From the NCBI GenBank assembly GCA_026770705.1, contig JANJGN010000011.1, positions 50,158,001 to 50,222,000 on the forward strand: DNA of 64,000 bases, read 5' to 3'. The translations under genes and the position numbers were made by a program. The DNA comes from Isurus oxyrinchus (taxonomy: Eukaryota). Within the stretch, counting starts at the first letter, position 1. Every line of letters starts with the position of its first letter. Positions 11,788 through 12,347 of the stretch are shown here, piece by piece. Under the pieces are notes generated by a model. The model was not told the origin of the DNA and ran no database searches. It worked only from the letters and a program-made list of their open reading frames with translations.

Positions 11788-12347
11788 TGTTATGTTCCAG
11801 AAAGCCAGTTAGTGAAGGATAAAATTGGGACCAATACTTACGTACTTTTATAAGCATTTACTTATAGAGCCACGCATTACAAGAATGTACCTCCTAACCC
11901 AATCCCCATAGTTTCAGTCTGTGTCTTTATACTTTTATTTACAAGAACATCTCACTGGAAATATTGACAGCAAAGACTCATGAGGATTTAAACTGTTCAG
12001 CAGACATCACACTACAGTTGAGGTGGAGCTCCATTGAATAACAATCTCATTCCTTGAGCATTTGATGCCAGACTAAAAAAAATGGAGCAGAAAAGCCGGA
12101 GCCAAAGAATACTGCCATCATTGCCAATAGCTTCCACTTGTTCTCCACAGAAAATGGCAAGTTCTTTCCCGGGCCTTCCTCATAGTGTGATCTGTGGATC
12201 AGCGAGGTACTGAAGTTACGGACTGTGCGCGCCCACAACATGGCTCCCGATTACAGTGACTCGAACCATTATATAGGGACACAAGTCAATCCCCAGTTAA
12301 TGCTCACCACTTGCATACAATTCACCACAATTAATATACAATTAACA
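11788..12347 (-). mobile_element. Solo LTR carrying a COX7C retrocopy
   Basis: Insert in the LINE begins TGTTA and ends TAACA (LTR-type TG..CA with 5-bp TIR); imperfect flanks GTGGG/ATGGA; minus-strand TATA CCTATATAA at 12277-12269. Confidence 0.7.
12047..12241 (-). pseudogene. COX7C: Processed (intronless) copy of cytochrome c oxidase subunit 7C with an uninterrupted ORF
   Basis: [64 protein letters not shown] contains the diagnostic [25 protein letters not shown] start; 3' UTR with AATAAA (plus-strand TTTATT 11934-11939); two conserved Arg codons show CpG-type changes (CAC, TGG). Confidence 0.93.

Follow-up and report, generated by a model that had tools for sequence, protein, structure and literature searches.

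A spliced copy of COX7C interrupts the TATA box of an old solo LTR in the window, by which we mean the whole stretch of 64,000 nucleotides analysed here. We consider it likely that this copy was placed there by the enzyme of a LINE acting on a host mRNA and that it has probably drifted without function since. Read on the minus strand, the unit at 11788-12347 consists of the upstream half of the LTR (12347-12269, ending in TATATAA), the COX7C cDNA (12268-11932, 337 nt), and the downstream half of the LTR (11931-11788, beginning with TATAA). The unit and the LINE around it comprise the following features.

11385..13395, minus strand: fragment of the host LINE, presumably CR1-like, split by the LTR; ends placed by eye; 19 matches at 69-80% to uninterrupted junction relatives in the fetched loci
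11783..11787, no strand: first copy, in the host LINE, of the 5-bp target duplication of the LTR; one substitution relative to uninterrupted LINE relatives
11788..11931, minus strand: downstream part of the solo LTR (the duplicated TATA piece, then likely R/U5, a label given by position), ending in ...AACA; 77-83% to 39 other scored places
11927..11931, minus strand: downstream copy of the TATAA duplication and likely priming site; its first three letters are also native COX7C 3' UTR
11932..12268, minus strand: processed COX7C cDNA with a 27-nt leader (the parent's is longer), ORF, and 3' UTR cut just behind AATAAA, without poly(A); exon junctions near 12164 and 12035
11934..11939, minus strand: COX7C polyadenylation signal AATAAA, read from the sequence
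12047..12241, minus strand: intact COX7C ORF of 64 codons with copy-specific R16H, V55F, and K64E and one synonymous change; Pfam COX7C, E=4.4e-24
12269..12275, minus strand: LTR TATA box TATATAA, whose first T precedes the ATG by 34 nt; it includes the upstream copy of the duplication
12269..12347, minus strand: upstream part of the solo LTR (likely U3), beginning with TGTTAA; 70-88% to the upstream halves of other copies
12348..12352, no strand: second copy, in the host LINE, of the 5-bp target duplication of the LTR; one change relative to uninterrupted LINE relatives

The termini of the unit (TGTTA at 11788-11792 and TAACA at 12343-12347), the TTATA repeats around the cDNA (11927-11931 and 12269-12273), the AATAAA, and the 64-codon ORF all lie where an earlier note on this DNA had put them. 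The same note had taken the insert for a COX7C retrocopy with a full ORF, which is borne out by the Pfam match and by the loss of both parental introns: the parent gene has three exons (G000:C4:144.405-144.410 Mb), and neither intron is present in the window copy. The nesting of the LTR in a LINE is confirmed by relatives of the host LINE that read through the LTR's site without interruption and by the 5-bp duplication there, which has decayed by one change on each side. Elsewhere in the window, a Sacsin-domain ORF of 532 codons (37878-39476, plus strand) lies 25.5 kb from the unit and has two relatives at 35% identity on C30, one of them within a 3684-codon frame, and a DDE_Tnp_4 transposase fragment (E=3.9e-18) is found at 16428-17096 on the plus strand.

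Nothing of the LTR was lost at the COX7C insert, where 5-6 bp were duplicated. The duplication is 5 bp as read in the window; because organism B has the parent's base at 12268, it becomes 6 bp with that base. TTATA had been read as the duplication, and this stands, although the 3' repeat opens with three letters that belong to the native UTR as well, so that the 3' junction is one of microhomology. The UTR of the parent runs on past the end of the copy with TATTAA where the LTR reads TATAAA, a match of 3 nt, or five of six letters; similarity at the 5' junction is 0-2 nt (up to 2 nt in the allele of organism B). The window copy ends behind AATAAAAG and has no poly(A) tail. It is therefore not a canonical L1-type copy, and internal priming would account for its end. 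Public contigs of organism B (three runs from one study) bridge the 5' junction in 3/3 runs, covering 44, 63, and 73 letters of the cDNA, and extend past the 3' junction by 27 and 30 letters, just missing the 31-letter rule; their divergence from the window is about 1.5-3%. The insert is thus real and common to organism B, and an assembly artefact is unlikely.

The two flanks of the insert belong to one LTR family, as the earlier note had supposed. When we searched with the LTR halves, 40 of 1080 candidates were scored and 29 other copies fetched, and the halves are contiguous in 22 of these 29. The window LTR has TG...CA ends and a 5-bp duplication; among 13 solo LTR copies, with small offsets allowed, 4-5 of the 5 duplicated positions match in six and 2-3 in five, with no call in two. 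The region behind the LTR, shared by 4/4 long loci at 64-73% across both LTR subfamilies, begins with a primer-site-like motif, which we take to be that for initiator-Met tRNA. One match to a Copia-type reverse transcriptase was found among 41 pieces (RVT_2, E=2.9e-6, 27.5 bits, below the cut-off of 31.6), and 47 further pieces gave nothing relevant; the target element is probably of Copia type. The LTR subfamily of the window is also represented, without interruption, at L003:643-853, about 600 bp upstream of the L003 insertion described below.

The downstream half of the window LTR differs by 17.0% from the nearest of the 29 copies (median 21.5%; copies among themselves, median 18.6%) and the upstream half by 12.9% from the nearest of 21, distances that rest on the 40 scored of 1080 candidates, among which a closer, younger relative could be missed. 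The insert has seven changes of its own in 337 positions (2.1%, 95% CI 0.8-4.3%). With the insert at about 2.1% and the LTR at 17% or more from its kin, COX7C must have been inserted long after the LTR; even when halved, the LTR distance exceeds the confidence interval of the insert.

Of the 18 matches returned by the genome search for COX7C, three are exons of the parent on C4 and the other 15 are retrocopy loci, that of the window among them. These retrocopies (L001-L018) lie 1.7% to 13% from the parent and have two different tail positions, which points to long-running retroposition in this genome. As two further genes, RPL39 and RPL37A were picked blind, and ten RPL39 matches less the parent exon left nine copies, sixteen RPL37A matches less two parent exons left 14. 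At the LTR site we found three of the 15 COX7C copies (window, L003, and L014), one of the nine RPL39 copies (L123), and none of the 14 RPL37A copies. In total, 4/38 retrocopies are located there, or 3/37 without the seed, all in the sense orientation of the LTR. On the assumption of 2,000-100,000 LTR copies, with 1080 and 562 candidates as lower bounds, the chance of 3/37 ranges from 5e-13 to 6e-8 if a site of 10 bp is required, and does not exceed 6e-4 if any position in the LTR is allowed.

COX7C in L003 occupies the TATA box of the second LTR subfamily, and behind it comes a SINE-like insert whose duplication measures 18 bp (L003:1832-2192). The 3' break of this COX7C copy is the same as in the window and its 5' junction is different; both copies end with AATAAAAG and join directly at TATAAA. 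We considered a single duplicated event for these two and rejected it, because the LTR subfamily and the 5' junction differ, so that they represent separate events. In L014, the COX7C copy at the same TATA box is truncated at its 5' end, has a poly(A) tail, and is flanked by a duplication of 11-14 bp; its junction is in AAG, about 3 nt further in than in the window and L003. Behind the tail-less RPL39 copy in L123, a SINE-like insert again occurs, here with a duplication of 14 bp; the TATA word is altered there, and the downstream LTR half was identified by BLAST (E=4e-17), the upstream half by eye only. Three of the four mRNA inserts at the LTR site have no poly(A). The earlier note had proposed to look for COX7C in other copies of the LTR: L003 and L014 do carry it at the same site, whereas none of the other 14 COX7C copies has the window's flanks.

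Beyond the LTR site, the COX7C copy in L007 is the third to break off at the UTR word seen in the window and L003 but is not in an LTR, and the 3' end of the L002 copy meets a LINE at a word similar to the LTR target. At L124 (G000:C8:153.07 Mb), an RPL39 copy without a tail lies in another, GC-rich repeat and is flanked by a perfect duplication of 14 bp; it may reflect a similar delivery to a target other than the LTR. An automatic duplication search of 36 of the 38 retrocopies (L017 and L018 left out) returned mostly noise and missed the 5-bp repeat of the window. Pattern searches for more mRNAs with poly(A) plus the LTR motif gave one unrelated match and then none. AATAAA plus the target gave seven matches against three in the reversed control, and these seven are L003, three LINE stacks, one intact LTR, and two non-LTR places, with no further mRNA; such exact patterns are weak against copies diverged by 13-20%.

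Two origins had been offered in the earlier note, a retrocopy that landed in the LTR and an mRNA captured by template switching. The second of these, in which two switches occur in the reverse transcription of the LTR element and the solo LTR forms later, appears extremely improbable to us. It could account for the missing poly(A), for LTR sequence on both sides, and for the short junction matches, which measure 3 nt (5/6) on the 3' side and, with organism B's allele, up to 2 nt on the 5' side; internal priming would lead one to expect such matches too. An insert about 2% old within an LTR that is 17% or more from its kin, with 40 of 1080 candidates scored, and whose own duplication has decayed, is hard to reconcile with capture. 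Moreover, LTR sequence was not replaced, 5-6 bp being duplicated, the window's flanks are unique to it among the COX7C copies (0/14), and at the same site the sister copy L014 shows a poly(A) tail together with a long duplication. The captured mRNAs described in the available part of PMC5131818 replace internal ORF sequence, and none of them looks like an interruption of a continuous element. The landing of a retrocopy in the LTR is what the data retain of that pair.

A LINE family in this genome prefers the TATAAA of these LTRs, inserts there in the LTR sense, and often stacks; this genome-wide use of the landing site had been overlooked in the earlier note. Breaks at or near the TATA box occur in 24 of the 58 non-seed LTR copies (7/29 and 17/29), five of them doubtful (L020, about 10 nt upstream; L045, L143, L147, and L154, unclear). 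A LINE 3' end lies within 300 nt in front of 12/24 broken copies, compared with 0/34 unbroken ones. One clear break is located elsewhere in the upstream LTR half (L042); breaks in the downstream half were selected against by the search. L030 and L039 both lie on C21 with a PRY/SPRY exon 3.3 kb upstream and may go back to a single duplicated event. From the side of the LINE, two 3' ends were searched, and for each 30 loci were fetched of 40 scored, out of 296 and 76 candidates. The downstream LTR half lies directly behind the 3' end in 19/58 non-seed LINE copies, versus 5/639 control windows on both strands (Fisher 4.5e-18), a count that favours LTR-linked subfamilies since the queries were taken from LTR-linked copies and that supersedes an initial 15/60 (narrower library, two seeds included). 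These LINE copies have an AAAAGAG-like terminal word and no poly(A), and they join at TATAAA. Their duplications of 13-15 bp start at the TATA word (L173, L174, and L184, long fetches); LINE and SINE inserts at the LTR site together show 13-18 bp. Several LINE ends are stacked in one LTR TATA box in L174 (7890-9600), L217, and L220.

SINE-like inserts with long duplications are found at the LTR site in L003, L123, L130, and L134. The last three apparently have a body in common, which is not that of the AG-tailed SINE and may be a partner of the LINE. The AG-tailed SINE itself, which lies behind COX7C in L003, was at the LTR in 0/29 copies and therefore has no general preference for it; ARAGORN identified no tRNA gene in four loci. 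Two LINE stacks start, by eye, with tRNA-copy-like sequence right behind the upstream duplication. In L114 (3247-3834) and L115 (3348-3902), 2.8 Mb apart on C21, PRY/SPRY exons are equally far from the LINE-LTR junction, a likeness that is probably due to an old duplication in a gene cluster. Seven equal-scoring LINE-end matches on small contigs (G000:C38, C42, and C146; L178), one of them beside a C2H2 zinc-finger array, suggest an amplified block.

The reverse transcriptase of the site-preferring LINE matches RVT_1 at E=0.0058, below the cut-off, its first matches in Atlas are reverse transcriptases at 0.95, and the match to L1 ORF2p is weak (E 0.45-0.72). Homologue searches with its ORF2 returned no match. 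By eye, we recognised what we take to be an endonuclease and C-terminal zinc motifs, and we presume the LINE to be L1/Tx1-like, a label based on motifs rather than on a tree. The sampled LINE copies are old (66-93% to the queries), with no intact young copy among them. Their 19/58 share, with queries from LTR-linked copies, exceeds the 20% of copies flanked by one target that defines target-specific Tx1 elements (PMC4494074).

Because three further gene copies and many LINE copies occupy the same spot, the LINE likely aims at the TATA box and now and then carries mRNAs; the shared site is the only link between the LINE enzyme and the mRNAs. Against this route, no intact young copy was seen among the sampled LINE copies, the window's duplication of 5-6 bp falls short of the 13-18 bp seen in inserts of the LINE itself, and the poly(A) of L014 and its junction about 3 nt inward are obtainable from a general L1 as well. 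Such a general, untargeted L1-like enzyme, for which the LTR TATA box would be an exposed, A/T-rich, and easily nicked site used by many elements, is in our view an unlikely source of the window copy. The general route evidently dominates in the genome, since 34/38 retrocopies lie elsewhere, mostly with A-tail remnants, and duplications of 15-16 bp starting in A were found in L122 and L157. L014, with its poly(A) and its junction in AAG, would fit it, as would the SINE-like inserts at the site (L003, L123, L130, and L134), though the AG-tailed SINE was there in 0/29 copies. However, 3/37 copies at one site are far above chance, and four of four mRNA inserts lie in the sense orientation of the LTR. 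Three of those four also resemble the ends of the LINE in having no poly(A), and in two the junction falls on the nucleotide used by the LINE.

On the simplest account, delivery by the site-preferring LINE would have proceeded as follows. An LTR element, probably of Copia type, entered the host LINE and left a solo LTR, whose TATAAA is of the kind that the site-preferring family uses, in sense orientation and often in stacks. Long after the arrival of the LTR, the LINE endonuclease would have nicked the template strand at the TATA box, and the freed end could have paired with UAUUAA just behind the AAUAAA of the COX7C mRNA. Copying would then have started inside the 3' UTR and run to near the 5' end, and copying begun at such a position makes no poly(A). 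A second nick 5-6 nt away would have produced the duplication.

The window copy differs from the parent at eight of 336 aligned bases, and two of these differences are common to most other copies (13/13 and 10/12) and belong to the parent's line. The copy-specific coding changes are T6 (synonymous, CpG), R16H (CpG), V55F, and K64E, that is, three nonsynonymous and one synonymous over 151 nonsynonymous and 41 synonymous sites, a ratio of about 0.8 by simple arithmetic in which four changes are without power. Two CpG-type Arg changes had previously been counted, of which only R16H is one; the second CpG change is the synonymous T6, and V55F and K64E had been missed. The neutral decay argued from those two Arg changes loses this basis and is nevertheless compatible with the four coding changes, which are too few to prove it. 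We regard the window locus as probably a young neutral pseudogene, whose function seems doubtful from its sequence.

The acquisition of an LTR promoter, as the earlier note had it, holds as geometry only. Counted from its first T, the TATA box lies 34 (or 32) nt ahead of the ATG; TATA boxes of the mouse are located at -32 to -29, with a usual spacing of 29-32 nt, in the part of PMC1779604 consulted. Transcription is accordingly predicted from this spacing to begin 0-5 nt ahead of the ATG. A leader of that length supports translation initiation poorly, and the next in-frame ATG of the copy, codon 42, presumably yields a product that would drop the import sequence. If alive, the LTR promoter would thus yield little full-length protein. 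A working retrogene under this promoter, whatever its origin, is very unlikely for the window copy, despite its intact ORF, its AATAAA, and a TATA box in sense. It is the only whole ORF among the three COX7C copies at the LTR site, and it is present in organism B too. Among all 15 copies, at most one gap and no stop were seen only in the window, L002, and the partial L014, L017, and L018, and no gap only in the window and L002. On the other side stand the three nonsynonymous changes to one synonymous, the predicted start, and the expectation that a 195-nt ORF remains intact at 2% divergence. Two contigs over the cDNA in X1 (organism A, a run presumed to be RNA) have parent-type bases and continue into parent-type UTR; since contigs drop rare variants, they say nothing about the window copy.

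LTR-preferring Tx1 elements are already known. The crocodilian Tx1-8_Crp and Tx1-4_AMi prefer specific LTR retrotransposons, and the SINE passengers of Tx1-Mar (SINEU) share the Tx1 target (Kojima 2015, PMC4494074); target-specific Tx1 has been placed in the L1 clade (PMC3747384). The present system resembles those of PMC4494074 in a LINE that prefers another transposon, in passengers at the shared target, and in tandem stacking around the duplication. It differs in that the main text of that paper, as far as available, names no position within the LTR, here the TATA box, and in that the passengers here are protein-coding mRNAs; the LINE here is Tx1-like by motifs only. With the processed pseudogenes of L1, as the sections consulted describe them (PMC5131818, PMC3747384), the window copy shares spliced cDNA, 5' truncation, target duplication, and pre-existing DNA as target, whereas it has no poly(A), a short duplication, no TTTT/AA site, and a homologous site that is reused in one orientation. 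LTR-mediated retroposition, in the accessible part of Tan et al. (2016, PMC5131818), likewise places mRNA between LTR-element sequence with short junction matches. Unlike those cases, in which internal sequence is replaced and both LTRs are kept, a continuous LTR was interrupted here with a duplication, long after integration. Retrocopies have been counted across vertebrates in PMC13320880, the consulted part of which has nothing on mRNA delivery to an LTR site. In the literature searched, which was without Repbase and subscription journals, we found no report of a target-preferring LINE that brings mRNA to the TATA box of an LTR. A TATA box as insertion site has a counterpart elsewhere. In Drosophila, the LTR elements 297 and 17.6 insert by integrase into the TATA boxes of histone genes, whereas the element here is a LINE, and we know of no mRNA passengers among those insertions.

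Retrocopies are usually promoterless at birth, and their landing is more or less random. Here, 4/38 from the three genes screened lie at one TATA box in sense orientation. If these were carried by the LINE, then a target-specific element is capable of mobilising ordinary mRNAs in trans, and a 3' UTR that resembles the target (TATTAA in COX7C, TATAAA in the LTR) can be primed without poly(A). An LTR-flanked retrocopy with microhomology is accordingly no proof of capture by an LTR element. The genome-wide pattern is worth following, while the window copy itself is probably an ordinary young pseudogene. As a speculation that we hold to be unlikely, a LINE homing on the LTR TATA box might act as a standing promoter trap, in which mRNAs would always be set down in sense a few bases behind a promoter in thousands of copies. 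Some of these copies, possibly that of the window, might then be transcribed, and the LINE would provide this lineage with a directed route to expressed retrogenes while disabling the promoter of a rival.
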